Below, piece by piece: positions 29 to 64,000 of a DNA stretch of 64,000 nt (the stretch's first letter is position 1; each line of letters starts with the position of its first letter). The notes under the pieces are model-generated. The model was given only the letters and a program-made list of their open reading frames with translations, ran no database searches and had not been told where the DNA came from. The DNA is from a virus. Both the position numbers and the translations under genes were made by a program. The DNA is taken from IMG/VR virus record IMGVR_UViG_3300031466_000074; one strand, 5' to 3'.

Positions 29-1990
29 TTACCCCAGCGTCTTGAACGCACCCATAAGCTCCAATGCCCCCAGATAACCGATAGGGAACAGGAATACCCC
101 TACTATCATCATGCCCAGCGGAATCAACGTTAACTTACCAGCCATTCTCCGCTTCTTCATGATCGCGGCTTGTGTCGTCATTTCCCGCATCTTGACCACG
201 TGTTCGCGCTCCAAAAGCAAAGACTCAAACGCCTCTCGAATGGACAACTCATTGATCGTAAGTTTAAGCTTTCCAAGGAAACGCTTAAACTCATAAATTG
301 GCGTTTTCGACTGCAAACGACTGATCTCCAACTCCGGATTAGATGGATAACAAAGCGCCGCGTAGACAAACATGTCTTTATGAATACGACTATTACGGGC
401 AAACTGATGCAGAAGCCCAAGGGTATCCGTATTGGTGTTCATAAGAATGGACGTAAGCGTCTGCAGTTGCAAGAAATCTTCCTGAGCCTCAGTTGCCGCG
501 ATATCCCGACGCATTTTGAGTGAACGATTCGGTGCAAACCAACCGACTACCCCCGTCGCATAAGCGATCAAGAGATAGTACCAATGGAAATACGCGTTCT
601 CAAGGTTCTTTGCCTTTGACTTCATCCGAGAAACCTGCTCATACACCTGCAAATCCGTCAGAAGCGGGAGATGGCTCCGAACAAGTTGCGCGATTTGGTC
701 GTCATTATAGGCTTTCGGGTTTTGCAGATAAATGGCGTCCATCTCTTTCATTTTTTCGCGGTCAAAAGCCGGAGTATTATCGGATGCGATAAGCGAAAGC
801 TGTTGCGTACTATGCCGCAAGAAGTCCTTGCTGATGCTAACCGCCAAAATGATCGTCATAATCGATAGAAGGATCGAAAAACCCGCGAGTAAGATCTTCT
901 TCGCGTAAAAGTGTTCGACGGTCATTTTGGAAAGTGCGGATTTCAACTTCCGTTCCAACAACACCCGCTTTTTGTTCTTCGGCGTGAGCGTGTAAACAAA
1001 ACGATAGAAGCGACGATTCTCCAACAAACGTGCAACAAAAGGAGAACGGTCATCCTCTTTCATTGGAATATTACAGTTGATTCGAGAAACGACCGTATAG
1101 CAAAGAATCGAAGCAAAAACAACCGCCGTTTGAATAACTTGACCAATAATCCCATTATAAACGAGGGCTACCCCCGGCATCGTGGAGGTCAAGAACATGG
1201 TACAAAGCGGTACCGCTGGAATAACTGCCAACGGCATGTACTCGATATATCCAAACTTGAGTTTGCGGAAGGTAATCCGCTGGATTTCCGAGTTAACATC
1301 TCCAATCAAGAGCGTAATGGCTTGCGAAAAGTTGGAGCGCCCCAACTCGTCCGTCTCATCGCCATCATTATTAATGCTAAAACAGATCGACGCGAACGTT
1401 TGAAGTGGACGAAACGGAGTAGACTCAATAAACTCCTGCAAACGAATCTCTCCGTTCGTTCCCGTCAAGATATTTGAAATGGTTTCCATCGGACGCTTAA
1501 TAATGTCAGGGTACTCGGCTTCATTCAGCGCATCTACAACACTGTTGGTACGGGAATATTCCTGCCGCACCGCATCAAGAGCATGCGCGGTTGCCACCAA
1601 AACCCTGAGATATATCCCATCAAGGCGTTTATCAATAACGATGTTGCTCAAGAAGATAGTGAAACCTACCCCAATCAGGATGATCAGGATGTTGTTAAAC
1701 AAAAGGATCATGACTACCGCCAAAACAATACTGCTACCCCACGACCACAGGAAGTATTTCACCGACTCACATCGAAGTTCATCCTTCCGATAAATCGACA
1801 GGTTCGCCAGCTTTTGCTGAATACGCAGATAATAGCGATAAGTCAAGAAAAACCGAGACAGAAACTTGTGCATCCGCGAATAAAACTTATTCATGATGCG
1901 GAGTTTTTCCGCCTTGGGTTTTCGGGAGTACCAGAAGAAGATACCCCCAATGGGGATGAATAAGGCGTAGATGATCAACAAAGCTTCCAT
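29..1990 (-). CDS. Tad pilus inner-membrane platform protein (probable TadB-TadC/T2SSF-like fusion)
   Basis: 653 aa with several TM segments arranged as two soluble-domain/TM units; directly downstream of and 1-nt coupled to a CpaF/TadA ATPase. Confidence 0.6.
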   Translation of the reverse strand: MEALLIIYALFIPIGGIFFWYSRKPKAEKLRIMNKFYSRMHKFLSRFFLTYRYYLRIQQKLANLSIYRKDELRCESVKYFLWSWGSSIVLAVVMILLFNNILIILIGVGFTIFLSNIVIDKRLDGIYLRVLVATAHALDAVRQEYSRTNSVVDALNEAEYPDIIKRPMETISNILTGTNGEIRLQEFIESTPFRPLQTFASICFSINNDGDETDELGRSNFSQAITLLIGDVNSEIQRITFRKLKFGYIEYMPLAVIPAVPLCTMFLTSTMPGVALVYNGIIGQVIQTAVVFASILCYTVVSRINCNIPMKEDDRSPFVARLLENRRFYRFVYTLTPKNKKRVLLERKLKSALSKMTVEHFYAKKILLAGFSILLSIMTIILAVSISKDFLRHSTQQLSLIASDNTPAFDREKMKEMDAIYLQNPKAYNDDQIAQLVRSHLPLLTDLQVYEQVSRMKSKAKNLENAYFHWYYLLIAYATGVVGWFAPNRSLKMRRDIAATEAQEDFLQLQTLTSILMNTNTDTLGLLHQFARNSRIHKDMFVYAALCYPSNPELEISRLQSKTPIYEFKRFLGKLKLTINELSIREAFESLLLEREHVVKMREMTTQAAIMKKRRMAGKLTLIPLGMMIVGVFLFPIGYLGALELMGAFKTLG

Positions 1991-23819: not shown

Positions 23820-23888
23820 ACGAAGACTCCTTTGCGTATTTACTCAATATACCCTCATGTCTGCACAGGGGATACTACCTTATAAAGA

Positions 23889-43633: not shown

Positions 43634-43659
43634 AACAACACCGCTCCTACATATTCAAA

Positions 43660-45300: not shown

Positions 45301-45304
45301 CTCA

Positions 45305-45643: not shown

Positions 45644-45737
45644 ATACAACCCCCAGAAAAATTGATACCTATATAAGATATCTGCGATGAAAAGTACAGA
45701 AAGGTAACTATGAGTCAAAAATAAAGCTGGACTGCCC

Positions 45738-45941
45738 TTAAAAGAGCAGTCCAGCTTGCAGACAAACCTTAACTTCCTCGAAAACTTCCGCATCTAGAAT
45801 AGCAAACCCGGATTCCGAAAGTTGAAGTAAGGCAAGATACCCCTGCGGGGTCACGTGGAGATTGTGGTAAAAGAGATAGGTAGAGACACGAATCCCTTCA
45901 AACTTAGGTACATAGAGTAAGTAAAGCAGATCCCCTCTCAA
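45738..45941 (-). CDS. Small hypothetical protein
   Basis: 67 aa; TTG start with GGTGAT RBS; fills the gap in the operon. Confidence 0.4.
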   Translation of the reverse strand: MRGDLLYLLYVPKFEGIRVSTYLFYHNLHVTPQGYLALLQLSESGFAILDAEVFEEVKVCLQAGLLF

Positions 45942-45981
45942 TAGTCATCACCAATAATAGTGTACCCCCGAGTAGGGAACG

Positions 45982-46866: not shown

Positions 46867-46958
46867 CATCAAATACCCCTCCCTCACGAAAACAGAAGCT
46901 ATACCGAGTATAGCTTCTGCTTTGAAAGAGGATCAACCTTATTCGATTGAGTGTTAAA

Positions 46959-47579: not shown

Positions 47580-47600
47580 TAAATTCGACCCTTTCTGCGA

Positions 47601-49319
47601 TTAAGATTTCTTATTCTGACTGAGCGCGTTTTTCGTACTGAGAGTGTTACCATTCACCTTGACGTTCTGTACCCGCGTATAATTGACAACTTTCCAAGTA
47701 CCATTACGGTTCACCAAGTCGACCAAAGCCTCAGTGTCATAAGTGCCTTGCGAAGTCTCAAAAATCTCACGAACCCGGACGCTGACAAAGACGTTCGTTT
47801 TCGTTTCCCACGCCACGATGTAGTTCGTCTTTTGATGGCTATCCTTAATAGCGGTAACGTATTCCGAGATCTTCAGCAACGTAGGTTGCGATACCCCGAT
47901 GTCTACAACGTTGGTAAAGGCGTCGGTGTCAACCTTCGCTTCAAAGACAACTTGCATGAAGTCCCGAAGGGCATTTTCGACCTTGGTTTTATTCGTCTCA
48001 GTGAAAGCCGTATTCGAGAACTGGATCAAATCCGAAATACCACTGACATTCTTTATGACCGAAACAGGCTCACCAGTCAAGGTAGAGCTAACCAAATTAA
48101 CACTCTTTACGCGGATCTTATCATCATTACCGAGTGCCATGCGATAGATAAGCGTCTCTTCATAAGTCGGCAACGACATATTAGCCCCACGCGCACGAAT
48201 CTTATACACGCGATTAACTTGAACCACAACAGTATTATCATTACTCCGCTGGAGGGTCTTGAAATTATACCCGCCAATGCTGAGATAAGTGTAGTTGTGG
48301 ATATCCTGATAATACTTATCAATATTGGCGAAATTGTCATGCAGAGAATACAAACCGACGTAATTGGTTTCCTCAACCGCTTTATGGTAAGAGTTAATGG
48401 TTTCATCGATAAAAGGCTTCAAAACCTCTACCCCATAATCCTGCGAGGATTCATAGCTCTTCAGAAGATCCTCCGCATTATTGACCTTATAATCCTTGAG
48501 GTAAAGGGCTTCTACCCCCAGATCTGTGACTTCCCCGAGATTGAACTTGTACGCGAAGATATACCGAATGGTCATTTTCGCCCCGCGTTCAAAACGATCC
48601 TCCGATACCAAACCACCATAGGTGAGCTTCCCGATACCGGGAATGTCTCGCATGGTTTGCGTTCGTTTCAACAGAGAAATTCCCTGTTGTTCCTCCATAA
48701 TACTATCAATACTCCCCCACGTCCGCTCAAACTCCGCTTTTATCGCCTCAGATTGTTCGGGGAGCATATTCCGTTTACTGTTCAAATACGAGATATAATC
48801 AGAATAACGCTGACTCTTCAGATGCTCCTCATCCGGCGCACCGAGCGGAATGCGGCTAGAAGGAACTACCGCCTTCAAATTCGAAGTCGTTTTATACGTC
48901 ACATCAACAAAGAAGAAACGTGTCGCCGGGTCAAAACCAACGATATCCGTCGATTCATACTCCCAAGTATATGCAGTACGTGCGAACTCAGTCAAAAGAT
49001 AATTGGCATACTCTTCAGTCAAATACTTACTCGTTCCATTCATCAAATCCGAGTTGATACGAGAAACAAGTGTATTGATCGCAGAACGGTCTTGATTCGT
49101 AACCTCAATGAGATTGTCACGATCCACCATGATCATATCACTGACATACCGATAAATCAAACCTTCTCGCTCATTCGTTGTCAGCTTTGCCAACCGATTA
49201 CCCGCGACCTCTTCCAGTGTCAAAGGAGCGATCTCCTTAACACTATTACCCCCTCCACACGCCGACAAAAGCAGGGCTACCGCCAAAGAAACACTCAATA
49301 CTTTACCAAACTTACGCAT
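47601..49319 (-). CDS. Large lipoprotein, probable repeated NTF2/VirB8-like domains of the transfer apparatus
   Basis: Lipobox LLSA|C; repeated helix-then-beta-meander pattern ending DLVNRNGTWKVVNY. Confidence 0.65.
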   Translation of the reverse strand: MRKFGKVLSVSLAVALLLSACGGGNSVKEIAPLTLEEVAGNRLAKLTTNEREGLIYRYVSDMIMVDRDNLIEVTNQDRSAINTLVSRINSDLMNGTSKYLTEEYANYLLTEFARTAYTWEYESTDIVGFDPATRFFFVDVTYKTTSNLKAVVPSSRIPLGAPDEEHLKSQRYSDYISYLNSKRNMLPEQSEAIKAEFERTWGSIDSIMEEQQGISLLKRTQTMRDIPGIGKLTYGGLVSEDRFERGAKMTIRYIFAYKFNLGEVTDLGVEALYLKDYKVNNAEDLLKSYESSQDYGVEVLKPFIDETINSYHKAVEETNYVGLYSLHDNFANIDKYYQDIHNYTYLSIGGYNFKTLQRSNDNTVVVQVNRVYKIRARGANMSLPTYEETLIYRMALGNDDKIRVKSVNLVSSTLTGEPVSVIKNVSGISDLIQFSNTAFTETNKTKVENALRDFMQVVFEAKVDTDAFTNVVDIGVSQPTLLKISEYVTAIKDSHQKTNYIVAWETKTNVFVSVRVREIFETSQGTYDTEALVDLVNRNGTWKVVNYTRVQNVKVNGNTLSTKNALSQNKKS

Positions 49320-49330
49320 TACGACACCAC

Positions 49331-50479
49331 CTAAATCGTAATTTTATCCCCTCGGAAGAACAGACGATTCGCCGCAACTTCCGCGTTGATTTGCTCCTTC
49401 GTGAAGAACTTCAAAAGGATCACTTTGCTTCGAATATGCTTATTGGTACGCAGAAACTCACGAATTGTCATCATTGGGTTAAAAACTGCATTATACTCAG
49501 ACAAGTCCACCTCTCCAGCATGGGTTTTAACCACCATAGGAGAAACGGAAAAAGAAGTACCCCCTGTCGACGCTGGGCTGACCTCCTTCTCCACCACCGG
49601 AGCGCTTGTAGCAAACGGAGCTTCTGACACAGAAGACTTGTTACCAGATACGAAAGGAACCACATTCGATGATTTCTGAACAGGAGTTGGCGAAGGAGTT
49701 ACTGACTCTACTGGACGAGCCGTGGATTGTGGTGCCGGAACAGAAACATCCTCCTCTTCGCCCTCGTCGGAGTCAGCAGGAAAGTCCTCCTCTTCCTGAT
49801 CGAAGTCAGAAAAGTCCTCATTGTCCTCGTCGCCTTCAAAATCGGATAGATCATCTTCCACATCGTCATCCGGGAAGTCGTCATCTTCCGGGTAGTCATC
49901 CTCTTCCGGGTAGTCATCCTCTTCCGGGTAGTCATCCTCTTCCGGGTAGTCATCCTCTTCCGGGTAGTCATCCTCTTCCGGATAGTCGTCCTCCTCCTCC
50001 GGATAGTCTTCCTCTTCTGGGTAGTCGTCCTCTTCCTCATCGAAGTCTGAAAGACCGTCCTCCTCTTCCTCGTCCGGGTAATCCTCGTCCTCGGCAGGGT
50101 AGTCGTCCTCTTCATCAGCAAACTCATCGTCATCCTCTTCCGGATAGTCGTCCTCAGAGAACTCCTCGTCCTCTTCGTCAGAAAACTCCTCGTCGCCCTC
50201 GTCCTCTTCATCAAAAAGTTCCTCGTCGCCCTCGTCGAAGGAGTCGTTCTCTTCCGGGTAGCCCTCTAATTCATCGGAACCCGCATCATCTTCAGATACC
50301 CCCGAATTGGTGCCCGTAGATGAAGTGAAAGGCTGAGTCAACTTCGAATAAGGATAGACAGAAGAAAGAGCCGGAGTAGCGGTTGACTCCGGCTCCGCCA
50401 CAGACTCAGACGCGGGTGCCTTTTTTCCTTGCACCAAAGAAAGAAAAGCTGAGCGCGTCAATTCATTCGACATGGGCAA
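49331..50479 (-). CDS. Highly acidic protein with YPEEDD repeats and a small folded C-terminal domain
   Basis: About 200-aa D/E tract; C-terminal MTIREFLRTNKHIR...FFRGDKITI. Confidence 0.8.
   Translation of the reverse strand: MPMSNELTRSAFLSLVQGKKAPASESVAEPESTATPALSSVYPYSKLTQPFTSSTGTNSGVSEDDAGSDELEGYPEENDSFDEGDEELFDEEDEGDEEFSDEEDEEFSEDDYPEEDDDEFADEEDDYPAEDEDYPDEEEEDGLSDFDEEEDDYPEEEDYPEEEDDYPEEDDYPEEDDYPEEDDYPEEDDYPEEDDYPEDDDFPDDDVEDDLSDFEGDEDNEDFSDFDQEEEDFPADSDEGEEEDVSVPAPQSTARPVESVTPSPTPVQKSSNVVPFVSGNKSSVSEAPFATSAPVVEKEVSPASTGGTSFSVSPMVVKTHAGEVDLSEYNAVFNPMMTIREFLRTNKHIRSKVILLKFFTKEQINAEVAANRLFFRGDKITI
49884..49991. repeat. 18-bp tandem repeat TCTTCCGGGTAGTCATCC (5 perfect copies + 1 near-perfect), encoding YPEEDD
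   Basis: Read directly; degenerate copies continue to about 50160. Confidence 0.95.
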
Positions 50480-50495
50480 ATACCCCCTTATACGC

Positions 50496-52928
50496 TTAAT
50501 CGTCCAACAAGTCTAACCCATCACCCTGTAACTCCGCAAGAAGCTCAGAGCGCTCTTGATCCGTAAGCCGCACCCGACCCGTCGTTTTCGTAGAAGCCTC
50601 ATTGACAGGAGCGAAAGAGATATCCGTTTTCGGACGGGCTACCTCCGCACTAGCCATTTCATTCAACGATGCCTCATAGTACGAACCCTTCAAAGAATCG
50701 GGATCGACTTTTGACCAGAACTTGAACAAGAAATCGAAGATCGCCGCCGTTTCATCATTGGTTTTCGCCAGCACCGCCGCATGCACGAATTGTGCTTCAC
50801 CACTCTTAAAGGATACCGCCATATCCCCCGGATGAACAAGACTATGCTCGAATTTGCGTACCCCCAAGGTGTCTTCAATATGCTCTGCCGAACCGCGAAC
50901 CGAAATACGGCAAGTAATAAGAGCAGTAATGCTCTTCTTGATGAACTCGTTTTTCACAAGGTGCGGAATCATAATAATTCTGATCCCTAAAGCTGGCAGA
51001 CGCGAAACCAGTTCCATGATAAGACCCTGAAACTCATCTTTTGTTTCCTTGTCCATACGCTCAGACAGAGAAACAATCTCGTCAATGATGACGTACAGAA
51101 GCGGCATCTTTTTGTCTGGGTTTGCCTTATTGTAATCGAAGATGTTCACACAACCCGCATCCGCCAAAACCTTCGTTCTCCGCGCACCCTCGACCCGAAC
51201 AACATGCCGAAGGGTGCGAATGATATCCGCATCATCCGAAACAAACTTACGCACATGCGGAACCTTGATCTTTTTGAAATCCGAGATCCCTTCTTTCGGG
51301 TCGCAAATATAAAAATGCAACTCCGAAGGAGAAAGGAAAGTCATCATTTGCGCCAGCATCGACAAGACCAACCAAGTCTTACCGGAACGTGGCATCCCGG
51401 TTACCAGCAAAGACTCAATGTTTTTGATATCCCTCCAAATTTCGTTCCCTTTATCATCTACCCCGAAGACAACCGGGATCATATTGTCTAGATTAAGGAT
51501 TTCCTTGCTGATATTTTGGTACAAGTCACGAACCGAAACCATCGCAGTTTCGCCCTTCATGATCGTAATATTGATGTTATTCCCGACCTGTACCCCGAAC
51601 CCGTACACCAAGTCATTCAGGCGAGCCGTCGTTTCATCGAAGCTGTAAATATTGGTGATCTCTGTCACAAACTGATTGACATTCTTAATCCAAGGAACCC
51701 GCTTGACCACCAAACGATAGAAAAACAACCGCTCCTCCGCCTTAATAAGATACGGCATTTCCACGTCGGAACCTTTCGGCTTAAGGATATTTGCAGACTG
51801 TTGTACCACCGCATCCCAAGCATCAAACTCCGCTCCCGTTATTTCCCGTACTTTATTGTAATCCCGGCGAATATAAGGGTACATTGACACGATGTTTTCA
51901 TAAAGATACTGACGAGTTAGCAGTTTATTCCCCTCTTGAACCTGACTCAAAATTTTATCCTGATCCGCATCGGAAAGTGGAGAATACCCCGTGCCCCCGA
52001 GAGCAGAGAATTCCAACTCTTCGCTGGAACCCCACTCACTCGCAGAGAAAGACGTATCGAATGACTCCTCTTCTTCGAAGTCATCCTCAAACGGTTCTTC
52101 CTCATCACCAAAAGAATCCAATTCCTCGCCCCAACCATCACTTTCAGTACCCCAACCATCATCCGACCCACCACCGCCGAAAGGATCGGAGAAGCTATCA
52201 GGCTGTGCAAAAGGATCAGCTTGTGCATCTCCAAAAGCATCCGGTTGCGATTCTGGTTGAAACGCTTCCGGGTTGGCGCTTACCTTCTCGTAACAGGACA
52301 TAAAGATCATAAGCCCAATACCCCCGGAAGCCAACCCGGAAACGATGAGCGAAAGTCCAAGAGATTTGGTAGATGCGAAGATAAGGAACAAACAACCCGA
52401 AAGAAATGCCACAATACTGATAATGAGCTGAGTCCGACCCATAACCATATAACTCAAGGTGTTCATCGACTTGAAAGAATTAACAAACTCCGAAGCAAAG
52501 GTGAAAAACCCCTTCATAACCCCTTTGGCAGTATCCCACAAAGCATCCTCTATTTTGGAAGACTGCCCCTGTTGCCCTTGCGGTTGCCCCCAAGCCGATT
52601 GTCCCGTGTCAAAAGAACCAAAACCACCCCAAGCAGAGCCACCGCCAAACGGTGTCGAAGCGCCGCCACCAAACAGATTCGCACCGCCACCGAAGGGATC
52701 ACTACCCCCTCCTACAGAGCCAGCACCACCAGCGCCGCCACCAAAACCTCCAAAAGAGGAACCCCAAGCGTCACCGCCACCCATACCTTCACCTCCCGCA
52801 AAGGTCGACGCATCGTCGAACCCCCAATCGTCCATTCCTGGCTCGGCGGCAGGAGGATTCATTTGCCGTTCCCGCTCAATTCGAGCATTATTCATGTCCT
52901 CTTTACTGACCTTGTCCATAATACCCAT
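50496..52928 (-). CDS. FtsK/SpoIIIE-domain membrane ATPase (TcpA-like coupling protein candidate)
   Basis: G/F/W-rich N-terminus, two TM helices, acidic linker, LLVTGMPRSGKT, FYICDPK, VIIDEI, ALGIRII. Confidence 0.85.
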   Translation of the reverse strand: MGIMDKVSKEDMNNARIERERQMNPPAAEPGMDDWGFDDASTFAGGEGMGGGDAWGSSFGGFGGGAGGAGSVGGGSDPFGGGANLFGGGASTPFGGGSAWGGFGSFDTGQSAWGQPQGQQGQSSKIEDALWDTAKGVMKGFFTFASEFVNSFKSMNTLSYMVMGRTQLIISIVAFLSGCLFLIFASTKSLGLSLIVSGLASGGIGLMIFMSCYEKVSANPEAFQPESQPDAFGDAQADPFAQPDSFSDPFGGGGSDDGWGTESDGWGEELDSFGDEEEPFEDDFEEEESFDTSFSASEWGSSEELEFSALGGTGYSPLSDADQDKILSQVQEGNKLLTRQYLYENIVSMYPYIRRDYNKVREITGAEFDAWDAVVQQSANILKPKGSDVEMPYLIKAEERLFFYRLVVKRVPWIKNVNQFVTEITNIYSFDETTARLNDLVYGFGVQVGNNINITIMKGETAMVSVRDLYQNISKEILNLDNMIPVVFGVDDKGNEIWRDIKNIESLLVTGMPRSGKTWLVLSMLAQMMTFLSPSELHFYICDPKEGISDFKKIKVPHVRKFVSDDADIIRTLRHVVRVEGARRTKVLADAGCVNIFDYNKANPDKKMPLLYVIIDEIVSLSERMDKETKDEFQGLIMELVSRLPALGIRIIMIPHLVKNEFIKKSITALITCRISVRGSAEHIEDTLGVRKFEHSLVHPGDMAVSFKSGEAQFVHAAVLAKTNDETAAIFDFLFKFWSKVDPDSLKGSYYEASLNEMASAEVARPKTDISFAPVNEASTKTTGRVRLTDQERSELLAELQGDGLDLLDD

Positions 52929-52943
52929 TTAGAACCCTCCTTC

Positions 52944-53081
52944 CTAGAGAAACGAGAATAGCACAATCAAAACACACAGAACGAAAAAGGTGATATAAAA
53001 AGACGTCTTCGTCTCCTCCTTAATCGGAGATGCCACCACATACGACAGTAAAGTGAACATCAAGATGAAGAACAAGACCAT
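52944..53081 (-). CDS. 45-aa two-TM membrane microprotein missed by the ORF track
   Basis: RBS GGGGAGGGGG; MVLFFILMFTLLSYVVASPIKEETKTSFYITFFVLCVLIVLFSFL fills the virB4-ftsK gap exactly. Confidence 0.75.
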   Translation of the reverse strand: MVLFFILMFTLLSYVVASPIKEETKTSFYITFFVLCVLIVLFSFL

Positions 53082-53084
53082 AAA

Positions 53085-55148
53085 TCAATCCCCCTCCCCC
53101 TGTGAAACAGGGTCGTCCTTCGACTTCGGTGTACTTACCCCCGTCTTATACAGTTTGGAGGATCGAATTTCTGGTGGATTCATGATCTTCACCACACTAT
53201 ACTTACTCCGGTCAAGACCCGCAAGGAATGCAAAAGTCAAAGGATCTTCCGCAGAATCGTCCTCCGTACCATAATCCTCCGCATCGTCAGGTTTCTTTGC
53301 TTTAGCGATAGCGTCCAAGTCATCAAGCATATGTTCAATAGAAAGACGCCTACTCAACTCCGCCCGAACATTTCGGTCAGAAATAGCTCCAATGAGGAAT
53401 GAAGTAATGTTCCCCAAGATAGCGAAACGATCAGCTTTAAGCAAATCCGCCACGTTGTTGGTGATAATAAAGTTAATATCCCCCAACTTACGACCACCTG
53501 TTACAGCAACCCCGATAGTCTTGTCAGAGCCGGGGAAATTACCCCAACGTTGAAATTCCTCCCAGACTTTGAAGTTGTAAAGCCCTTGCATATAGGAGAA
53601 CAACGAACGTTGGTGAGAGATTTGCGCCGCCCCCAACTGCATAAGCGCCAACTGCACCGGGTCAACCGATTGTTCTGACTTACCCGCCATCCCGAACGAA
53701 CAAACAACCAGACGGGCATCGATAATGTCTGAAATATTTACTCGCTCCCGGAACAAGGAACGCCGAAGTCCGAGAGGGGAAAAATATCGATCTAAAACCG
53801 CGATAGCTTGCTCCAAAGCGTCCAAGTATTCATCATTATTCCGATACTCACTCTCTTGAAGCTGATAGAACTTACGATAGACATCAAACAAAGTAAGCCC
53901 CTTAGACTTATACCAAGTCGACTTGTCATCCGTTACCCCTGCATCAGCATAGGTCTGAGACACCGCATCGTTAATAGCGATATCCAACCAACCATTGTTA
54001 TCCGGCAAACCTGAAAGTAACGTCCTAAAGTACGCCAATGTAAAATTGGTAGCGAACGTTTTCGCCGCATCATCAATCTCCGGCAAACCAACAGGCTCTG
54101 GAATTTCCAATGGATCGATATAACGTCCGGTACCTTCCGCCATGTTAATTGTCAAAACCTTATAGTCGTTACTGAGGAAATTGGCGATAGGTGCATACTC
54201 CAGACCTTCGACGTCCATAATCGTTCCGTTTACCCCGTGCGCGATAAGCTGAAGCAGAATATCCTTTACAAAGTTCGACTTACCGCCACCCGTTTCCGCT
54301 GTAATAAGCCAAACCTCAGCCGCGTCATCCCGCGCTTTGAAACGCTTCAATACCGGGTATAACGAATAAACGTCCGAACCAACATACACCCCCAGCGCTC
54401 CGAGCGTTCCCTGATCGTAGGTGTTGAAACGGGAAGCAACCTCGTCCGTAATAACCAACTCGGGAATAATCGCCATAGACTCCTTCGTAAACATCCGTTT
54501 GTACGGGCTGAAATGCCCAATAACATCCGGGATATCATAAAGGACACGCTCCATGTTCAAACCCAAGTCCGAGGTCACCTTTTCAATACTCCGAACACTG
54601 ATATCAAGGTCTTCCCCACGATCTCCCAACACCATCATAAGCATAGAAAGACGAAAAAGGGATCGCCCTCTCCGCACACTCGCCAAGGAAAGATAAGAGA
54701 GGGAATCCCGTATCCAAGCTTGCTTGTCCATCGTACCAATAATGCTATGCAGGTTAAAAGCATTGACTTCCTTATTCTGCCGCTCCTCATCAACCCGAGA
54801 AAGGACACGCAAACGGTTCTTCATCTCCGTAGAATTCCAGTTGATCATGTGGGGCTTAAAAGTAGTGATAAAATTCACCCGTACCCCCTGTCGACAACAG
54901 CTACGAATGATTTCCTTAAAGTCCGCAAGCAAATGACGGGGAAAAGACTTAAGAACGTAGTAATACACCATTTTCTCCCCATCATAAGACGCGACGAAGT
55001 CCACCCCGACTTTGTCCGGAACGTGAGGTAACTCACGCCCGAACGCCGAGTTGTTCTTCGTCTTCGCGGCAAAATACATATCGTCATAGAGGGAGATTGT
55101 CTCCCTCCAATACTTCCTGAAACCACCTTTACCCCAAAGCCCCAACAT
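53085..55148 (-). CDS. VirB4-like (TcpF/ConE-type) conjugation ATPase
   Basis: ITAETGGGKS (Walker A), IMDVEGLEY, YIDPLEI, KVWEEFQRW (Walker B), GRKLG. Confidence 0.85.
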   Translation of the reverse strand: MLGLWGKGGFRKYWRETISLYDDMYFAAKTKNNSAFGRELPHVPDKVGVDFVASYDGEKMVYYYVLKSFPRHLLADFKEIIRSCCRQGVRVNFITTFKPHMINWNSTEMKNRLRVLSRVDEERQNKEVNAFNLHSIIGTMDKQAWIRDSLSYLSLASVRRGRSLFRLSMLMMVLGDRGEDLDISVRSIEKVTSDLGLNMERVLYDIPDVIGHFSPYKRMFTKESMAIIPELVITDEVASRFNTYDQGTLGALGVYVGSDVYSLYPVLKRFKARDDAAEVWLITAETGGGKSNFVKDILLQLIAHGVNGTIMDVEGLEYAPIANFLSNDYKVLTINMAEGTGRYIDPLEIPEPVGLPEIDDAAKTFATNFTLAYFRTLLSGLPDNNGWLDIAINDAVSQTYADAGVTDDKSTWYKSKGLTLFDVYRKFYQLQESEYRNNDEYLDALEQAIAVLDRYFSPLGLRRSLFRERVNISDIIDARLVVCSFGMAGKSEQSVDPVQLALMQLGAAQISHQRSLFSYMQGLYNFKVWEEFQRWGNFPGSDKTIGVAVTGGRKLGDINFIITNNVADLLKADRFAILGNITSFLIGAISDRNVRAELSRRLSIEHMLDDLDAIAKAKKPDDAEDYGTEDDSAEDPLTFAFLAGLDRSKYSVVKIMNPPEIRSSKLYKTGVSTPKSKDDPVSQGEGD

Positions 55149-55151
55149 GTG

Positions 55152-56645
55152 TTAATCACTCCCGAAAATATGACTTCTAATCAACTCAAACATATTTCGA
55201 TGCTTATTCATAAACGCATTGACTCGTTCCGCTTCCGATGCAGGTTCTCCTCCGGGACGATACCACTCATTGACGTGCATGACCTTAATTACCCCACTCT
55301 TCGCAGTCAAAGAGCGAATGTAATGCGTCTCGGGAATAGACGAATCCGGGATGCCCTGACCGCGAGTTACCCCAAAACGCGTCATACGGGAACCTTTCAA
55401 GAGCTGATCCCCCATCAAATAGTCTACAACAATATACAGATTCACGTTGGGCTGTTGGAAGAACAAGTCGAGAACGCGCTTATAAGGCTCATAAGTGATA
55501 TAATAGTCAGACTCCTTCAGCACACTTTCAATCGTTGCTACCCCCGAACTGGAGAGAAGCGGAAGATGCTTGTACCGCTCCGTATACTTTTTAAGTTGCG
55601 GGTAGACAAAGAGAAGTTTACTGTTGACCCGCTTAGTTGCTTCGTATTTCAACCAACGCTGGAACATAATCATGAAAGTGTTGAGGTAGTTGATAGGTGA
55701 AAAGACCTCAACATACATGACATGCGGGGTCGTAACCGGAATCATAACCGTAGGAAAGAGGAAAGTGGTGCTAGTGACGTTCTTCTGTTGCTCCAACCGA
55801 AGCTGTTTCTCCATTTCCTCCTTAGCTTCCTTCTCCAACCGAAGCTTCAGTTCCAGTTCACGAAGTCTAGCCTCATATTCCCTGAGTTTCTCTTCACTAG
55901 GAGCCAGCTTATCATGTGCCTCCTGCAACTGCCCCTTGACCTCGGCAAGTTCTTTATCCTTCTCCGAGAGCTGAGTTTCATATTCCTTGATGGTTTGCGA
56001 AAGCTCCAAGTGACTGGACTGCAAAGAGGAAATCTCCTCCCCATAATGGGAGTCGAGCTTTTGCACCTCTTCCTGTGCTTCAAGCAGGGTATTGTAAACC
56101 TGCTTGTACTGATCCTTTAACCTATCGAGCATGACCTTAGCTTCACTTAAAGCATGAACAACCCGCTGATTGGAGTTTGAAGCTACAGTCAAGGCTTCAG
56201 TGATGTTATCGAGAGCCAAGTTAACCTTGCGGGCGATCAGCTCATTCCGTTTAGAGGAATCGTTACCCCCAACCGTGGAGATAAACTTGCGAAGTACCGA
56301 AATGTCCTCCGTAAAGTTGTTCAAGGGGATACCGTAGTTCCCATAGTCTGCGATAAGTTCGTCCAACAAAGACTTGTCATAAAGAGCGTCCTCATAGTCA
56401 TGAAAATCCGCAGAAAGTGCTGAAAAGATAACCAAAAGCAAGGGTTCAAAGACCTTGTTGATATACAGAATCTTCAAACCCTTACCTTTAAGCCCACTCA
56501 AATACATCGCTATGTTAACGTCCGAATCAACAGACGAGTGATATACCAAACAATCGATAGACTCGATATCCTCTGGCAGTTCTGTCAGAGATTTAACACA
56601 GTTTACCCCCTCAAGGGTTACCGTCGCACTGACGAGATGCACCAT
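55152..56645 (-). CDS. Coiled-coil protein with receiver-like N-terminus
   Basis: 497 aa with a long central heptad region; operonic with virB4. Confidence 0.7.
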   Translation of the reverse strand: MVHLVSATVTLEGVNCVKSLTELPEDIESIDCLVYHSSVDSDVNIAMYLSGLKGKGLKILYINKVFEPLLLVIFSALSADFHDYEDALYDKSLLDELIADYGNYGIPLNNFTEDISVLRKFISTVGGNDSSKRNELIARKVNLALDNITEALTVASNSNQRVVHALSEAKVMLDRLKDQYKQVYNTLLEAQEEVQKLDSHYGEEISSLQSSHLELSQTIKEYETQLSEKDKELAEVKGQLQEAHDKLAPSEEKLREYEARLRELELKLRLEKEAKEEMEKQLRLEQQKNVTSTTFLFPTVMIPVTTPHVMYVEVFSPINYLNTFMIMFQRWLKYEATKRVNSKLLFVYPQLKKYTERYKHLPLLSSSGVATIESVLKESDYYITYEPYKRVLDLFFQQPNVNLYIVVDYLMGDQLLKGSRMTRFGVTRGQGIPDSSIPETHYIRSLTAKSGVIKVMHVNEWYRPGGEPASEAERVNAFMNKHRNMFELIRSHIFGSD

Positions 56646-56658
56646 TTTATCGCCACCC

Positions 56659-59004
56659 TTAACTGATGTTGCTCAAAACCTCAACGTACATATTCACCCC
56701 ACCCACGGACGGAACGATCAGAGGAACCTTACTCCAATCGATCTCCTTTTCACTGAGATCAAACAGATCAGCGATATACGCCATGTTCCGATAATGCATT
56801 TCCGGGTTTCCGCCTTTAGCGAGGAAATAATGCAGATTACTAAACAGTCTAACCTTATGCCGATTGTCCGGGAACGCAGTATCTAAAGTAATAAACGAGT
56901 TCAACGCACTCCCCAAATCATCCTCCAAACAAAAGACCACAGAAGCGTACTGAACCAGATCCGGGAAATATTTCAGATTCTCAGCAGGACAATCAAAAAC
57001 AACAGTGCGATACAAACGCTGAGCGATGAAGACGTCTTGCAGAAGTTGCAAATGGTCATCATCAAACTCCGTGTCATACAGATTTGCGATACAATCGAAA
57101 CCCCCTTCAAAGAAAGGAAGGGAAACGTTGTCTAACATAGCGGCAGATTTAAGGCTGAGAAGACCTCTCTGAACATTTTCCTCTTCTTGAAGCAAATGAT
57201 CGAGAACTCCGAAAATAAGAGAACCCTTCCGCTTCAAATCAAAGTCCACGAAAAGTGTCTTCTTACGCCGACCAGCCGCCGCCGCAAGGTTAAAAGCAGT
57301 TGTCGTTACCCCCGAGCGTCGATCCCCAGTAACAATGATGAGTTCAGGAGCATTACTGCTACCCCCACGACGTCCACTACCCACTTCCTTGACAATAACA
57401 CGCTCAACAACGACTTTATTCCGTTCTGCTTGCTCCCGCTCCAACTCTTCTGCCAGTTTCGCGGCATCCGGCAAGTCCAAGTTCTCTTCCTCAGACACCA
57501 CTTCGACCGAAGGCGTGATAATTTTCGGGGCAAATACTTGCGGAACAGAGTCAGGAATGGGTGGAACATTTTCTTGTTTAAGTTTTTCCCCCAACTCGGT
57601 CAAACGACGTGTTTTATCTTGCCAAGAGGTATCTTCACTCAGTCTTGGTGTATCTGACTCTTCCGGGTACTGAATGGTAGTCGAAGCAGATGGAGTTTCA
57701 AATTCAGATGAAGAAGGAGACTCCGACTCAGACTCAAAAGCAGTAATCGACTCAGAGGACGAATCGATCTCTTCTGTATCCAAACCCCAATTGTCCTCGT
57801 CCCCTTCTGCATCCGCAAAAACGCCATCGGATGATTCCGACTCTACCGAAGGAGTAGAAGTGTCACCGAGTGATGAAGAACCCTCATCACCAGCACCTCC
57901 CCATGAAATACCCCCACCACGAACCGTGAAATCCATCCAAGAGTCATCACCATTGACAGAATGACCCTCATCCCCAGACGAACCTTCAAGAGAACTATCC
58001 TTCCCACTCGAAGGGAAAACACCTTCATCAGATGGCGATCCCCACCCCTCCAAAGAAGACTGATCTCCCGACGAAGGAAACAACTCCTCACTACCCGAAG
58101 GAGTGTCCCAGACATCTTCCGGCGGGAAGTCATCGTCTGCCATAGGCTCTCCGAAAGAAGAAACCTCCGATGTTTCGGACGGAAACGCAGACTCATCACC
58201 AGACTGAACCTCAGTGTCCCAAGCGTCTGAAGATTCATCCTCTGGAAGCCTTACCCCCAAACCAACATCGTTACCCGATTCAAAAGAAAAACCGGGAAGC
58301 GAAACCGGAGTTTCCTCTTCAGGTAAGGAGTCTGGATTGTCGAAATACCCCTCAAAGGATTCCGGCACAGGCTCAGACGCGGGAACCTCTTCTTCCGTGG
58401 CGGGAGATTCCGCTTCCTGTCCCTTCTTTTTCTTACCCCTACCGAACAAACCAAACAAGCCGCCCTTATCCTTCTTCTTTTCCGTGGGTACAGGTTTCTT
58501 TGGTTGAGAAGTAGACTTGGGCTTGGACTCGATAGTCTCATTGATAAGGTCTTCCCCATCACCAGCAGGACTCAATGCATCTTCACAATATGTCTTTTTA
58601 ATACGGTCAATATCCCACTCAACCACCGTGAAGATAAAGGAGGGCTTAACCTTCTCACAGAGAACAACCGCTGTGTAGATAGAAGAAAAGATTCGATTAA
58701 ACAGACGATAAACCGTTTCCCCAGTAGTAATGAAGATCACGCGACAACCAAAAAAGCGTTCGTAAAGATAAGTATTGAACGACGACAAAACTTCCTCGGG
58801 TTTCACATGCTCCGAGAGATTCTCGAAATCAAAGGCATTTTGCAGAATCAACAACCGATCATGATCAATACGACGAACTTGCGTCTCCCGCATAAAGTCC
58901 TGCACGGAATTATAAGTGGTGATCTGAATATTGTCAAAGCGACCAAGAATGAGTTGCTTCAACTGATCCGCCCGTGCTTTCTTACCGATAATACCGAGCT
59001 TCAT
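56659..59004 (-). CDS. MinD/CpaE-like protein: receiver-like N-terminus, long acidic disordered linker, C-terminal ParA/MinD domain
   Basis: IIVTGDRRSGVTTTAFNLA, LFVDFD, VVFDCP; GGLFGLFGR amphipathic motif. Confidence 0.7.
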   Translation of the reverse strand: MKLGIIGKKARADQLKQLILGRFDNIQITTYNSVQDFMRETQVRRIDHDRLLILQNAFDFENLSEHVKPEEVLSSFNTYLYERFFGCRVIFITTGETVYRLFNRIFSSIYTAVVLCEKVKPSFIFTVVEWDIDRIKKTYCEDALSPAGDGEDLINETIESKPKSTSQPKKPVPTEKKKDKGGLFGLFGRGKKKKGQEAESPATEEEVPASEPVPESFEGYFDNPDSLPEEETPVSLPGFSFESGNDVGLGVRLPEDESSDAWDTEVQSGDESAFPSETSEVSSFGEPMADDDFPPEDVWDTPSGSEELFPSSGDQSSLEGWGSPSDEGVFPSSGKDSSLEGSSGDEGHSVNGDDSWMDFTVRGGGISWGGAGDEGSSSLGDTSTPSVESESSDGVFADAEGDEDNWGLDTEEIDSSSESITAFESESESPSSSEFETPSASTTIQYPEESDTPRLSEDTSWQDKTRRLTELGEKLKQENVPPIPDSVPQVFAPKIITPSVEVVSEEENLDLPDAAKLAEELEREQAERNKVVVERVIVKEVGSGRRGGSSNAPELIIVTGDRRSGVTTTAFNLAAAAGRRKKTLFVDFDLKRKGSLIFGVLDHLLQEEENVQRGLLSLKSAAMLDNVSLPFFEGGFDCIANLYDTEFDDDHLQLLQDVFIAQRLYRTVVFDCPAENLKYFPDLVQYASVVFCLEDDLGSALNSFITLDTAFPDNRHKVRLFSNLHYFLAKGGNPEMHYRNMAYIADLFDLSEKEIDWSKVPLIVPSVGGVNMYVEVLSNIS

Positions 59005-59019
59005 ATGAATACCCCCTCG

Positions 59020-60048
59020 TTAATCCAACGAAATCTCCTCGTCCGGTTGCTCATTTTTACGCTTAAACCAAGTGCGCTTCCGTTTGAGCTTCCGCTCCCC
59101 AGCAGATACACGCATATTGGCTCTCTTCTCTTCAGAAGTAAGGTTAAAGACGGTCTTAACTCCGTCCTTTTCTCCCCAAATTACTGTGAGCGGTGCGCTC
59201 AACTCGCGACTATTAAGTACATTCTCAATAGCATTATTGGGTGAGAAGGACTCCAAGTTAAACACCGTTTGCACTAGTTGACCAATCATATACTTGTTAA
59301 GGTACCGAATACGCGCAAAGTTCGCCCGCTTAAAACCAGACACCGCTTCACGGATATCCAAAAGAGCGTCATAATCGTCCTTCCGCCAATACAAACAGTA
59401 CACATCGTAAGTAGAAAATGCCCGTTGCATCGCTTTCTCCAGATAATCGTACTTCATAGTGATGAGGTAACGAAGATTCTTCCCATCAATCGAAGCGGCG
59501 GCGCTAAAAAGGTTATTCAAACGAGAATCTTTTCCGATGCTGTCCATGTAATCAATATGCGTAAACTCAATTTCTGCCTTCGCCAATTCCTTATAAACAT
59601 CCGCTATAGCCTGATGATGGTCAAAAACATAATCGTCTTCCTTACCGACGATTACCCCCTTATCGAGAGCGATGAAGACCCCACGATAACCGTTACGGAA
59701 CGTTACCACATACGGAAAGGTGTTCGATACCTCCACAATCGACCACAACAAATTTGTTCCGAACATATAGTTCGACTCTTCCAACGCCGCCCGCTTCTCC
59801 CGATAATAATGCTCCCGGAAAAGAAGAAAACGCATGACGTAAATGTACGCGATAGTCACTACCACCATCCAAAGCAGAGTTTGCCCAAGCGTGGACGCGG
59901 CAAGCGTAAGAAACATAAGAAAACCCCAAACCAACGTAAGCCCAATCCCAAGAAATACCTTAGAAGCTGTACTAGGCTTTCCACGCCGCTTCGAGTCAAA
60001 AGTCAAGGGTATTTCAATATGAGAGGTATTCTCGCGAGTAGGTTCCAT
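59020..60048 (-). CDS. Two-TM conjugation-associated membrane protein (possible PrgI/TcpE/VirB3-like)
   Basis: Two N-terminal TM helices plus a cytoplasmic domain; in the virB4 operon. Confidence 0.5.
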   Translation of the reverse strand: MEPTRENTSHIEIPLTFDSKRRGKPSTASKVFLGIGLTLVWGFLMFLTLAASTLGQTLLWMVVVTIAYIYVMRFLLFREHYYREKRAALEESNYMFGTNLLWSIVEVSNTFPYVVTFRNGYRGVFIALDKGVIVGKEDDYVFDHHQAIADVYKELAKAEIEFTHIDYMDSIGKDSRLNNLFSAAASIDGKNLRYLITMKYDYLEKAMQRAFSTYDVYCLYWRKDDYDALLDIREAVSGFKRANFARIRYLNKYMIGQLVQTVFNLESFSPNNAIENVLNSRELSAPLTVIWGEKDGVKTVFNLTSEEKRANMRVSAGERKLKRKRTWFKRKNEQPDEEISLD

Positions 60049-60060
60049 CCCTTATCCTCC

Positions 60061-60573
60061 TCAAACAAACCTAAAGTCTTCAATAATACCGTTGATAACT
60101 GTCACCAACACCCGTGCAGTATAGGTTTGCCCACCCTTCTCAAAATTCAAAAGGACATAGTAGTCCGTAAACAGCGGATCACCAAGCTGATACTGCACCT
60201 CGACAAACGAAACCTTAGAAGCCCCAATGAAACGATAGGGATCATATGACTTACCATATAACGAGCTTACAACGTTTTCCGACAATTTTGGACTTGACTT
60301 AGAAGATTGATACGATGTTGCATCCGAAACCAAGAAAAAGTTACGTACCTCCGTAATCACCGTCTGCTTGTGATCCTCATACAACAAAAAGTGCGGATTC
60401 ATGGTGGAGTTAACATAAGCGATTTGCTTATTCTCCCATACCCCCATAACCACCACCCACACCATGATCACAAACGACACTGAAAACACAACCCAATACA
60501 AGATCTTCTTCCATCGTTTCTTAGGTTGCATAGAAATGTTTCTATCTTCAACAACCGAAGATTTATCGACCAT
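60061..60573 (-). CDS. Single-TM exported protein, VirB8/NTF2-like
   Basis: N-terminal TM; C-terminal beta meander YYVLLNF...RVLVTVINGIIEDF. Confidence 0.55.
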   Translation of the reverse strand: MVDKSSVVEDRNISMQPKKRWKKILYWVVFSVSFVIMVWVVVMGVWENKQIAYVNSTMNPHFLLYEDHKQTVITEVRNFFLVSDATSYQSSKSSPKLSENVVSSLYGKSYDPYRFIGASKVSFVEVQYQLGDPLFTDYYVLLNFEKGGQTYTARVLVTVINGIIEDFRFV

Positions 60574-61009
60574 CGCGTAATACCCCCACTTCGATCTTTT
60601 CTAAACCTTGAGGTGTCCAAATAGCCTCTACACGATATCTGAAGTCCGCCGCACTAAACAGCATAAAATGACGAACCCCATTATACCCGAATGCCGTGAA
60701 AAAGGCTTCATACGCCGGAGTGTCGTAGGGGAGAGTCCCCAAAATATTTCGCACTTCTTCCGAAAAAGAGAACCCTTCTGGGATAGTTAAATTTCCAGAG
60801 TTCTCTCCAGTAGTAACGAAGTCAATCAAAACATCACGATTTTTCTCAGCTAATCTCTTAGCAGAGAGGTAGGAATCTAATGTACTTTCCACAACTCCAT
60901 TATATTCCTCAATCTCACGCGCAAGAGTTTCCGAAGATGCCCCACAAGCCGAGAGTAGTAGAGGGAGCGCCCCGAGTACAAGAACAAACAGTAAACGTCT
61001 CACGTTCAT
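60563..61009 (-). CDS. Lipoprotein
   Basis: Lipobox LLSA|C; C-terminal beta meander. Confidence 0.7.
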   Translation of the reverse strand: MNVRRLLFVLVLGALPLLLSACGASSETLAREIEEYNGVVESTLDSYLSAKRLAEKNRDVLIDFVTTGENSGNLTIPEGFSFSEEVRNILGTLPYDTPAYEAFFTAFGYNGVRHFMLFSAADFRYRVEAIWTPQGLEKIEVGVLRDGR

Positions 61010-61039
61010 ACCTCCTAATAGAAAAGGTGTTCTAGAAAC

Positions 61040-61492
61040 CTAGAACACCTTGTATAAATTTGCTATGCGTCCTTCTTCAAAGATGATCAAGGTTGTAAAC
61101 TGGCGATCCCCGGTTGGGGTACGCTGAACCAAATCCGCCTTAAAGACGAAATCCCCGGAAGGAGAAGGTTGACCAACAATACGTTTGACCGCCAGTGGAT
61201 AGTAAGTTCCTTCCTGATAGGAAGAAAAGTAGTTCAACCAAAAGTCCGATGTCATGCGAGAGAAGTAACGCTGTCGCTTAGACTGGAAGTCTTCTTCCGA
61301 ACTAAAATATAAGATGTCGGGTAACTCCAAAACCAACGACTTTGCCGTGAAATAAGCAGTCAACTCATGCTTCGTCCTATTTAATTCCGCTCGGTAGGGT
61401 GAGCCGACAATCAAGTCATAAGCGATAAACGCCACGACTATAACAAACGCCACCACGCTAGACAGCGTGAATAACCGTCTCCACGTCAACAA
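61040..61492 (-). CDS. Single-TM exported protein, VirB8/NTF2-like
   Basis: TTG start with RBS AAGGAGGGTG; TM helix; ends TLIIFEEGRIANL. Confidence 0.6.
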   Translation of the reverse strand: MLTWRRLFTLSSVVAFVIVVAFIAYDLIVGSPYRAELNRTKHELTAYFTAKSLVLELPDILYFSSEEDFQSKRQRYFSRMTSDFWLNYFSSYQEGTYYPLAVKRIVGQPSPSGDFVFKADLVQRTPTGDRQFTTLIIFEEGRIANLYKVF

Positions 61493-62663: not shown

Positions 62664-64000
62664 TCAATATACTAAGAGTACATAGTTTGCGGCTGAACTC
62701 GCTTTCCGCAGTTCCTCACGACCCCACAACTTAAGGGAATCCGATACATCAGACGAAGAATACATTCGATATTTCTTCGTACCATTTTCCTCGATTAACT
62801 TATTAATAACCACAAAGTGATCCGAACCCCTTGAAGCGATTGGAGGATCGGAGAATTTAGCGATAACCAAACCCCCATTCCGCAAAGTTTCATCGATCTT
62901 ATCCCACGTACTCGTTGCACGAATATTCGAAACTTCCTTCACCTTCAAACCGAACAACCCAAAAAGAGTCGGTAACCCAGAACGCTGTAGCCCATCACTG
63001 CTAAGCGAATTTGTCATATACATAAGCGCCGCCGTTTCAGGGGGATTAATCCCGATCCGCGTCTTTGCCGTGAGGACGTAAGCAACAGAATAGATCATAC
63101 AACCATTACGAGAGAACGTCCATCTGCCATTCTTATCCCGACGAGTACTCCAAGGTTGCCCACCATACAACTCGATATCAGCACTCTGACGTTGGAAAGG
63201 CACTTGATAAGGGTCAGATTCTAAAGGATAGGCTTCACGCAAAGCCTCAGCTTTAGAATCCTCCCCTTGCTCATATGCAGAAACACCAAAGTAGTTAATC
63301 AAATTATTGATGATAGTTACTGCATCATCCGGCAACTGCGATTTCTTTACCTCTTCATAATAACGACGAGTAGTGTAGGTTTGCCCGCCAATCGTAAAGG
63401 TCGCGTTACCCTCGGGATTCTTACCCCCGTAAACGATTTCGGAGCGGAGCGGTACGACCTTCTTTTCAAGGATTTCAATAATAGCTTTTCCTTGAATGAA
63501 AGAGTTAAACCCATAATGGAAGTTCAAAGTGCGAGTTTGCATGTTACCGGAGTAGCCCGACATTTTCTTAAGCTCTTGCCAAGCCTCCTCCATCGCTACA
63601 CGCCGACTTTCAGGGTAAGTCGACATATTTGCTTCTGACATAATGAACTTCCAAACAGGCTCCTCCAAAACCCTACCATTAAGCTTCATTCTAATAGAAT
63701 TATCACCCAACTTCAACTCCGTGTGATGCTTCCACTTCGGATCATTCATACCCTCGCTACCAATAAAAATCTTACGGAACTTGTACTCCGGTACAGCAGG
63801 AAAGGCGTCTTCATCCTTATTTGTCAAAGCTACAAGTTCCCAATTATAGAGACTGCGAGTATCGTCCGAATCACCAGAAACATAGTAAAGAGCGCACCAA
63901 AAATTGAAATAATGTTCGTACTCCGTTTGAGATACCCCATGATAATGGGCTTGAAGAAGGAAATAGTAAAGCATAGTGTAAAGCTCCATACGGCGTTTCT
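62664..64000 (-). CDS. C39-like (papain-fold) peptidase domain protein, probably 5'-truncated by the window edge
   Basis: Q-P-W...GCMIYSVAYVL (Cys) and SDHFVVI (His); frame stays open upstream of the Met at 63989. Confidence 0.7.
   Translation of the reverse strand, partial: KRRMELYTMLYYFLLQAHYHGVSQTEYEHYFNFWCALYYVSGDSDDTRSLYNWELVALTNKDEDAFPAVPEYKFRKIFIGSEGMNDPKWKHHTELKLGDNSIRMKLNGRVLEEPVWKFIMSEANMSTYPESRRVAMEEAWQELKKMSGYSGNMQTRTLNFHYGFNSFIQGKAIIEILEKKVVPLRSEIVYGGKNPEGNATFTIGGQTYTTRRYYEEVKKSQLPDDAVTIINNLINYFGVSAYEQGEDSKAEALREAYPLESDPYQVPFQRQSADIELYGGQPWSTRRDKNGRWTFSRNGCMIYSVAYVLTAKTRIGINPPETAALMYMTNSLSSDGLQRSGLPTLFGLFGLKVKEVSNIRATSTWDKIDETLRNGGLVIAKFSDPPIASRGSDHFVVINKLIEENGTKKYRMYSSSDVSDSLKLWGREELRKASSAANYVLLVY

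Follow-up and report, generated by a model that had tools for sequence, protein, structure and literature searches.

GGGGTA, a selected and strand-polar DNA word in giant plasmid-like elements and an unrelated phage, and its possible reading as a Chi-like signal

The uptake sequences of Haemophilus (uptake signal sequences, USS) and Neisseria (DNA uptake sequences, DUS) are very dense and even, occupy all reading frames and shape protein sequence, and they occur equally on both strands. Other words have a direction. The FtsK-orienting polar sequences (KOPS, GGGNAGGG), the SpoIIIE recognition sequences of B. subtilis (SRS, GAGAAGGG) and the KOPS of L. lactis (GAAGAAG) are strand-polar, G-rich chromosomal 7- to 8-mers that are read by the gamma domain of FtsK and give direction to a DNA-tracking motor; PMC3384302, cited here for the L. 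lactis word, deals with the co-evolution of guide words and FtsK. Three phages without a recombination module, coliphage LLS, Pseudomonas phage MD8 and P1, are Chi-rich (Genome Res 2025, PMC12315714), the host Chi occurring 20:3 by strand and once per 1.86 kb in LLS and 32:0 by strand in MD8. As for giant elements, a link to the 'Inocle' elements of oral streptococci was considered; PMC12340149 mentions for these a DNA gyrase and a switch of gene orientation at ori and ter, LPXTG, a protein motif, is all that it has under 'motif', and it reports no DNA word. The element considered here is giant and plasmid-like (at least 229 kb) and is linked to compost bacteria. A stretch of 64,000 nucleotides of it, IMG/VR virus record IMGVR_UViG_3300031466_000074, was analysed as a whole and is called the window below; it carries the hexamer GGGGTA at high density and almost exclusively on one strand.

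By exact count, the + strand of the window contains 166 copies of TACCCC and five of GGGGTA. An earlier note on this DNA, made by eye, had given about 150 against a handful and a density of one per 400 bp or so; the density found is one per ~385 bp, with 97% of the copies on one strand. The rarity that the same note ascribed to AACCCC, CACCCC and GACCCC is confirmed, as these one-base-altered words occur 32, 19 and 7 times on the + strand. All credible genes of the window lie on the - strand, so that GGGGTA is a word of the coding strand. The open reading frames (ORFs) that a greedy caller places on the + strand are few and spurious, and the gap at 23.4-24.1 kb contains two small ORFs of the - strand. 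The copies are distributed as follows:

30..63938, - strand (TACCCC on +): dispersed GGGGTA copies, n = 166, mean spacing 387 bp, largest gap 1505 bp
23726, 24037, 29719, 32250 and 61116 (span 23726..61121), + strand: the sole five reverse copies (GGGGTA on +)

The reverse copies do not mark genes of the + strand: at least three of them lie inside genes of the - strand, two of these in the small ORFs at 23.6-24.1 kb. The number of reverse copies in genes (3 observed, 7.2±2.7 expected) does not depart significantly from chance.

The forward copies are mostly genic (154 of 166, with 14 touching intergenic DNA), and a copy stands in the ribosome-binding region of ~6 of the 49 genes. When synonymous codons were shuffled within each gene, 27.8±4.5 genic copies were expected (z about 24-27), which amounts to a 5.5-fold enrichment present in all frames; a shuffle of codon order gave 19.9±4.3. 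Split by frame 0, 1 and 2, the genic copies number 83, 39 and 32, against about 10, 10 and 8 expected. The Gly-Val pair is written GGG-GTA in 83 of 146 cases (about 10 expected), and the dipeptide itself is 1.4-fold over-represented in the window. The word is actually written in 57%, 38% and 54% of the amino-acid contexts able to encode it, for frames 0, 1 and 2 respectively. A null that strictly preserves dipeptides or codon pairs would erase the frame-0 excess by construction and is thus uninformative; frames 1 and 2, like non-coding DNA, also show an excess, which indicates that the signal is not a codon-pair habit. The copies are spread over all genes and all frames, no single repetitive gene or frame holding them. 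An artefact of codon use or of repeat proteins is therefore ruled out by the excess in all frames, in all genes and in non-coding DNA, and with it the possibility, raised at the outset, that Gly-Val or Gly-Tyr codon use in one frame would account for the word.

Every 4- to 7-mer was scored against the synonymous null in the genes of the window. GGGGTA reaches a z of about 24 among all hexamers, and the next unrelated one, TGGCGG, a z of 6.5. All one-mismatch variants of GGGGTA are at or below expectation, from which it follows that all six positions matter. The flanking bases carry little information, with a mild preference for G at position -1, the commonest base there (63 of 166). GGGGTA is thus a selected, strand-polar, direction-giving DNA word and not a by-product of protein coding, and it is kept at the highest density that coding allows.

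The spacing of the copies has a coefficient of variation (CV) of 0.73, against 0.99±0.075 for random placement, and none of 5000 simulations was as even. Exact look-ups put the window on a JGI contig of 229,235 bp (3300033752, Ga0373396_000077), along which further look-ups (L374-L376) extended the coverage to positions 69,272-180,902. Over these 111.6 kb, 291 forward and 12 reverse copies were counted, density and polarity being unchanged, and the stretches added outside the window hold 62 genic copies where 11.4 are expected. Every called gene is co-oriented over the ~112 kb walked, and no strand switch was met. Between the window and its closest relative, 10 of 30 sites are found at the same aligned position while the density is kept; such a turnover of sites at constant density implies selection on density and not on positions.

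The GyrA-like protein of the element has about 80 metagenomic relatives (31-67% identity, on contigs of up to 356 kb). Seven related lineages were obtained by protein search and exact look-ups. A single-protein scan of viral contigs and a metagenome scan with a family-specific protein of 276 aa gave no relatives, and alignment scans of genome and viral contigs were dominated by ordinary GyrA and ParC. The seven lineages share the gene order SNF2, GyrB, GyrA, DnaB, ParM, and their genes are unidirectional in all cases. Their forward and reverse copies of GGGGTA are:

L001: 31:2, GC 46%
L003: 27:1, GC 35.5%, mostly AGGGGTA
L005: 54:1, GC 42%
L086: 35:0, GC 41%
L087: 56:0, GC 36%
L171: 36:1, GC 35%
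L088: 7:1, GC 28%, genic copies 4 against 2.5 expected

The word is thus common to six of the seven related giant elements (GC 35-46%, 37-67% GyrA identity). Against the synonymous null, it ranks first among hexamers in L001, L005 and L087, with strong enrichment in L171 as well (z 8.7-15), and it comes close to the first rank in L003 and L086; in L088, by contrast, it is not enriched. The window and the six related loci together have 405 forward and 10 reverse copies, of which 23:1 lie in non-coding DNA (one per 579 bp) and 382:9 in coding DNA (one per 453 bp). The base at -1 varies by lineage, A being strongly preferred in most relatives (~30 of 56 in L087) and in the phage G314 described below.

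Pattern scans of IMG/VR for triple GGGGTA brought up other carriers. The densest matches encode giant repeat proteins whose copies all, or nearly all, share a single frame, and were rejected as artefacts without a polar signal. The viral contigs G304, G306 and G308 (L225, L210, L251/L303) hold genes for giant proteins in which GGGGTA recurs every 12-80 bases, all or almost all in frame 0 (Gly-Val repeats), and in one such contig repeat-protein ORFs of 531-1273 aa were resolved. G314 is of another kind: a tailed-phage genome of 28,378 bp, rated complete, with unidirectional genes that include a terminase, a portal, a holin, an endolysin and a long ORF of tape-measure size. It carries 46 copies on the coding strand against 3 reverse ones, in all frames; 40 copies are genic where 5.3 are expected (z 14), and the spacing CV of 0.73 is the value found in the window. 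A is preferred at -1 (29 of 46) and T or G at +1. G314 has no protein in common with the window or the related loci at an E-value of 1e-3 or better. In the IMG/VR contig G309, GGGGTA is the top hexamer (23 copies against 4.4 expected) only in a block of 11 kb (L305:1-11000) that encodes a tyrosine integrase, an uncharacterised protein of 660 aa, a GmrSD-like gene product, a DUF3846 protein and a serine invertase; next to it lie structural genes of a prophage in the same orientation, which lack the word. The block probably represents an integrated element of its own, one of those that carry the word. In 1.3 Mb of ordinary bacterial loci, no locus reached 12 copies, and in 1.2 Mb of phage loci encoding topoisomerase II none reached 10. 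Alicyclobacillus phage MMB025, which shares an SPP1 gp32-like ATPase with the window, has 4:3 copies in 50 kb and is not enriched.

A word that is under selection, polar, evenly spaced, renewed in its positions, spread through a family of giant elements and recurrent in an unrelated phage is best read, at modest confidence, as a Chi-like signal for an enzyme that tracks from DNA ends; a probability of about one third is assigned to this reading. The process could run as follows: an AddAB/RecBCD-type helicase-nuclease, or a defence enzyme resembling it, would enter at a DNA end and track along the duplex; on meeting the word from the 3' side on the 3'-ended strand, it would pass from degradation to a protective state that promotes recombination. 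For mobile elements with genes and replication all in one direction, it would be an advantage to fill that strand with copies at the highest density and evenness compatible with coding, little DNA being then lost after a break, after packaging cuts or upon entry into a new cell. The class of the reader, its encoding by the host and the direction of replication are what we infer here. The orientation of the word relative to the late genes in G314 is that of active Chi in phage LLS. Of the known systems, Chi as gathered by phages that depend on the end-processing enzyme of their host is the closest. GGGGTA further resembles Chi in Chi-rich phages in being short, G-rich and asymmetric, in having nearly all its copies on the strand coding for co-oriented genes, in being over-represented beyond codon use, in the turnover of individual sites and in a density on mobile elements that exceeds the chromosomal one. 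A KOPS- or Chi-like signal had been listed by the earlier note as an alternative to a primase site; it now fits better than the primase.

Several observations weigh against a Chi-like signal. GGGGTA is a new word: the published Chi words of Bacillota (AGCGG, GAAGCGG, GCGCGTG) differ from it and vary between genera, and none of these three is polar or enriched in the window. GGGGTA, unlike Chi, is constant across elements of very different GC (35 to 48%) and different habitats. Its density, one per 385 bp against one per 1.86 kb in LLS, is some five-fold above that of the Chi-rich phages described so far, and its copies are evenly spread and not clustered at one end. It is not over-represented in the chromosomes sampled: 301 evenly sampled Bacillota genomes have at most about 1 copy per kb (both strands), with a ratio of the word to the reversed-word control of at most about 1.7. 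Three of the genomes with the highest ratio gave a z of 0.1-2.7 in up to 100 kb; for one such genome, 500 kb gave a z of 6.7 and rank 192, which is not an outlier. Finally, the prophage genes beside the word-rich block of G309 lack the word, which means that within one host some elements do without it.

The alternatives are best weighed against the gene content of the element. The window encodes a Tad-type pilus set, a surface protein of 2863 aa, an ATP-grasp enzyme, a LigA-like ligase, a CHC2 zinc-finger protein, an EAL protein, ParM, an MBL-fold protein, a DnaB-like helicase, both subunits (A and B) of a type IIA topoisomerase, an SNF2 helicase, SprT, a thymidine kinase, an FtsK/SpoIIIE ATPase and a DUF87/HerA ATPase. 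The features that bear on the reader of the word are:

18954..20213, - strand: NAD-ligase-like gene, clustered with the CHC2 gene here and in the relatives L087 and L171
20528..21577, - strand: RuvC/RNase-H-like protein of 349 aa, conserved neighbour of the CHC2 gene, not a Toprim primase
21595..22179, - strand: CHC2 protein of 194 aa, with a DnaG-type zinc-binding domain (Pfam PF01807, 1.3e-13) and a helical tail
33070..35184, - strand: DnaB-like replicative helicase of the element
35190..35195, - strand: copy of the word in a ribosome-binding region (tgggggtagctgaATG ahead of the helicase gene)
50496..52928, - strand: FtsK/SpoIIIE-family ATPase of 810 aa, with the FtsK_SpoIIIE motor domain as its only Pfam match, probably a coupling protein

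The CHC2 protein matches PDB entries 1D0Q and 2AU3 by sequence, and its predicted fold matches 1D0Q (TM 0.67). Orthologs of 184-195 aa are found throughout the family, L088 included. More broadly, a family of stand-alone primase zinc-binding-domain proteins of 184-198 aa was noticed (P0122-P0130, L087:15508-16077, L088:16307-16903), usually encoded near a LigA-like gene, with a conserved helical tail and without a catalytic domain; these proteins might be a separate specificity or adaptor subunit of the primosome.

The earlier note had proposed that GGGGTA is a priming site for an element-specific primase to which the CHC2 domain would give specificity. The word is indeed real, selected, polar and free of a codon effect, and it is the proposed mechanism that four findings weaken, to the point that priming now appears unlikely. 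In this scheme, GGGGTA on the lagging template, or on a displaced or transferred single strand, would be the start site of a DnaG-type primase (pppACCCC, the 3' A being left uncopied), with the specificity supplied by the stand-alone CHC2 protein, perhaps acting in trans on the catalytic domain of the host primase. The word does have the form of DnaG-type sites, a run of G, a T and then an uncopied 3' base; it ends in TA-3', like the CTA and TTA preferred by the DnaG of Bacillota, and resembles the site 5'-GGGTC-3' of T7 gp4. A genuine DnaG-type zinc-binding domain is kept across the family and clustered with the ligase, the element has its own DnaB-like helicase, the coding strand would be the lagging template if replication is co-directional with the genes, and even spacing suits repeated priming. 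The CHC2 protein, however, consists of the zinc-binding part and a helical tail, the window yielded neither a Toprim nor another catalytic primase domain, and the neighbour of the CHC2 gene is RuvC-like; a catalytic subunit could be encoded in another part of the element, which is 229 kb or larger. In L088 the CHC2 ortholog is present and the word is not enriched, whereas G314 has the word at z = 14 and no CHC2 or primase match among 18 ORFs scanned with Pfam and PHROGs. G314 moreover shares no proteins with the window. The occurrence of the word in unrelated elements, together with the case of L088, uncouples it from the CHC2 protein and points to a conserved host machine or to a reader not recognised here. 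The primase sites of T7 are not polar in its genome (GGGTC 39:55, TGGTC 79:62, GTGTC 43:42), so that a sequence-specific primase need not leave a genomic signature. One copy per 385 nt, with half of the opportunities used, is also far above what Okazaki priming needs.

A reader of a new type, belonging to mobile elements or to a defence system, was also considered, the word being then a self-mark that spares the DNA from a nuclease, a site of strand-specific modification or nicking, or a decoy. This is rather unlikely: the word does mark several unrelated mobile elements and neither the sampled chromosomes nor the neighbouring prophage, and no function is known for a large part of the element or for the majority of the early genes of G314, but no candidate gene is common to G314 and the window or related loci, and sites of modification or restriction are normally avoided or neutral, not enriched to saturation. 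Quite improbable is a signal in transcription or RNA, in which a factor that helps the long one-way operons, for example by anti-termination, pausing or RNA protection, would bind GGGGUA in the transcript or, within the transcription bubble, GGGGTA of the non-template strand. The word follows gene orientation everywhere it was seen, there being no opposite-strand genes to separate the readings; unrelated elements that share only the transcription or translation apparatus of their host could converge on one word; and some copies in 5' leaders double as ribosome-binding sites. Against such a signal, the co-oriented prophage genes beside the word-rich block of G309 lack the word, the base after the word is not G-biased, the ops site of RfaH (GGCGGTAG) differs from GGGGTA, and we know of no factor with GGGGTA as its site. 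A guide for a translocase, by which the word would orient a pump of the FtsK/SpoIIIE type, from the element or the host, during segregation or transfer, is very improbable. Pfam recognises two FtsK/HerA-type ATPases in the window, a third, SPP1 gp32-like ATPase being put in this class by the earlier note alone, and the polarity and G-richness of the word recall KOPS and SRS. The 810-aa protein, though, has no FtsK gamma domain (the word-reading winged helix) by Pfam, the reverse orientation is not clearly avoided (3 copies against 7.2 expected), and G314 shares no such ATPase. KOPS and SRS are 8-mers, roughly 30 times sparser, and belong to chromosomes, whereas GGGGTA is specific to mobile elements; KOPS (GGGNAGGG), SRS (GAGAAGGG), GAAGAAG and GCTGGTGG are neither polar nor enriched in the window. 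The Tad-type pilus, along with the density, the evenness, the presence in all frames and the effect on protein sequence, also calls to mind uptake sequences, from which GGGGTA differs by lying at 97% on one strand (166:5 in the window, 405:10 in the family).

Other features of the element were noted. The same DNA was found in compost, bioreactor, phyllosphere and sheep-gut metagenomes, in 16 studies. Ribosome-binding sites are strong GGAGG of the Bacillota type; GGGGTA copies as internal Shine-Dalgarno-like sites were rejected, since genes use the canonical GGAGG and GGGGTG, which would pair better than GGGGTA with the tail of the 16S rRNA, is depleted (18 against 32 expected). Downstream of ParM, an ATPase of 985 aa (24144-27101, - strand) matches PHROG 5156 at 1.7e-137. 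Full-length relatives are present in many Bacillus phages (SPP1 gene 32 region, SP-10), in plasmids of the Bacillus cereus group and, at 36% identity, in Alicyclobacillus phage MMB025. Beyond the window, the contig carries a class Ib ribonucleotide reductase (NrdI, NrdE, NrdF), a pol III delta' subunit, a thioredoxin/DsbD pair, NERD and HNH proteins, a bactofilin, a WGR-PARP protein and a reverse transcriptase, all on one strand.

Several short words are nearly missing from the genes of the window by the synonymous null: GGCC (2 against 84 expected), GCAGC and GCTGC (0 against 42-45), CCTGG (0 against 39), GGTCC and GGACC (0 and 5 against 31-39), CGATCG (0 against 20), GCAAT and ATTGC (0 and 1 against 46-58). 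This near-absence of short palindromic or near-palindromic words looks as though restriction sites were avoided across the board, which would be expected of a mobile element that travels widely. On the coding strand, CTCTTC is absent from the window (18.3 expected) and from the extension (8.3 expected; L374-L376). GAAGAG (62:0) was rejected as a second polar signal: it is at about the expected level, and only its reverse complement is avoided. This pattern, with every site in the same orientation, is one that makes DNA immune to type III restriction enzymes, as with the EcoP15I sites of T7. Homopolymer runs are also avoided (GGGGGG 0 against 35 expected, TTTTTT 5 against 40), and GGGGGTA occurs 56 times in genes despite the absence of GGGGGG.

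A full-text literature search found no relevant publication on GGGGTA as a stranded or AddAB-linked word. Returning to the Chi-like signal, a broader and more tentative proposal can be made, namely that GGGGTA may be a previously unrecognised directional word of many unrelated mobile elements of Bacillota, read by a conserved cellular machine on which the chromosome itself would not rely. Its carriers might then comprise giant plasmid-like elements, small tailed phages and integrated elements, and candidate readers would be an AddAB for whose large group this is an undescribed Chi, or a new end-tracking defence nuclease. Saturation of one strand could in that case be an escape from degradation, possibly also from the capture of CRISPR spacers.

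If a host end-processing nuclease reads the word, then a Chi-like signal would be identified for a large and poorly studied part of Bacillota, and it would appear that mobile elements push such a signal to the limit set by coding, using half of the synonymous opportunities and bending protein sequence towards Gly-Val. If the word instead serves priming or another code particular to the element, it would be a genome-wide signal for replication of a type not seen before. Either way, mobile DNA of this class can be recognised in metagenomes by GGGGTA as a simple sequence tag, and the word is a strong constraint on the recoding or engineering of these elements.

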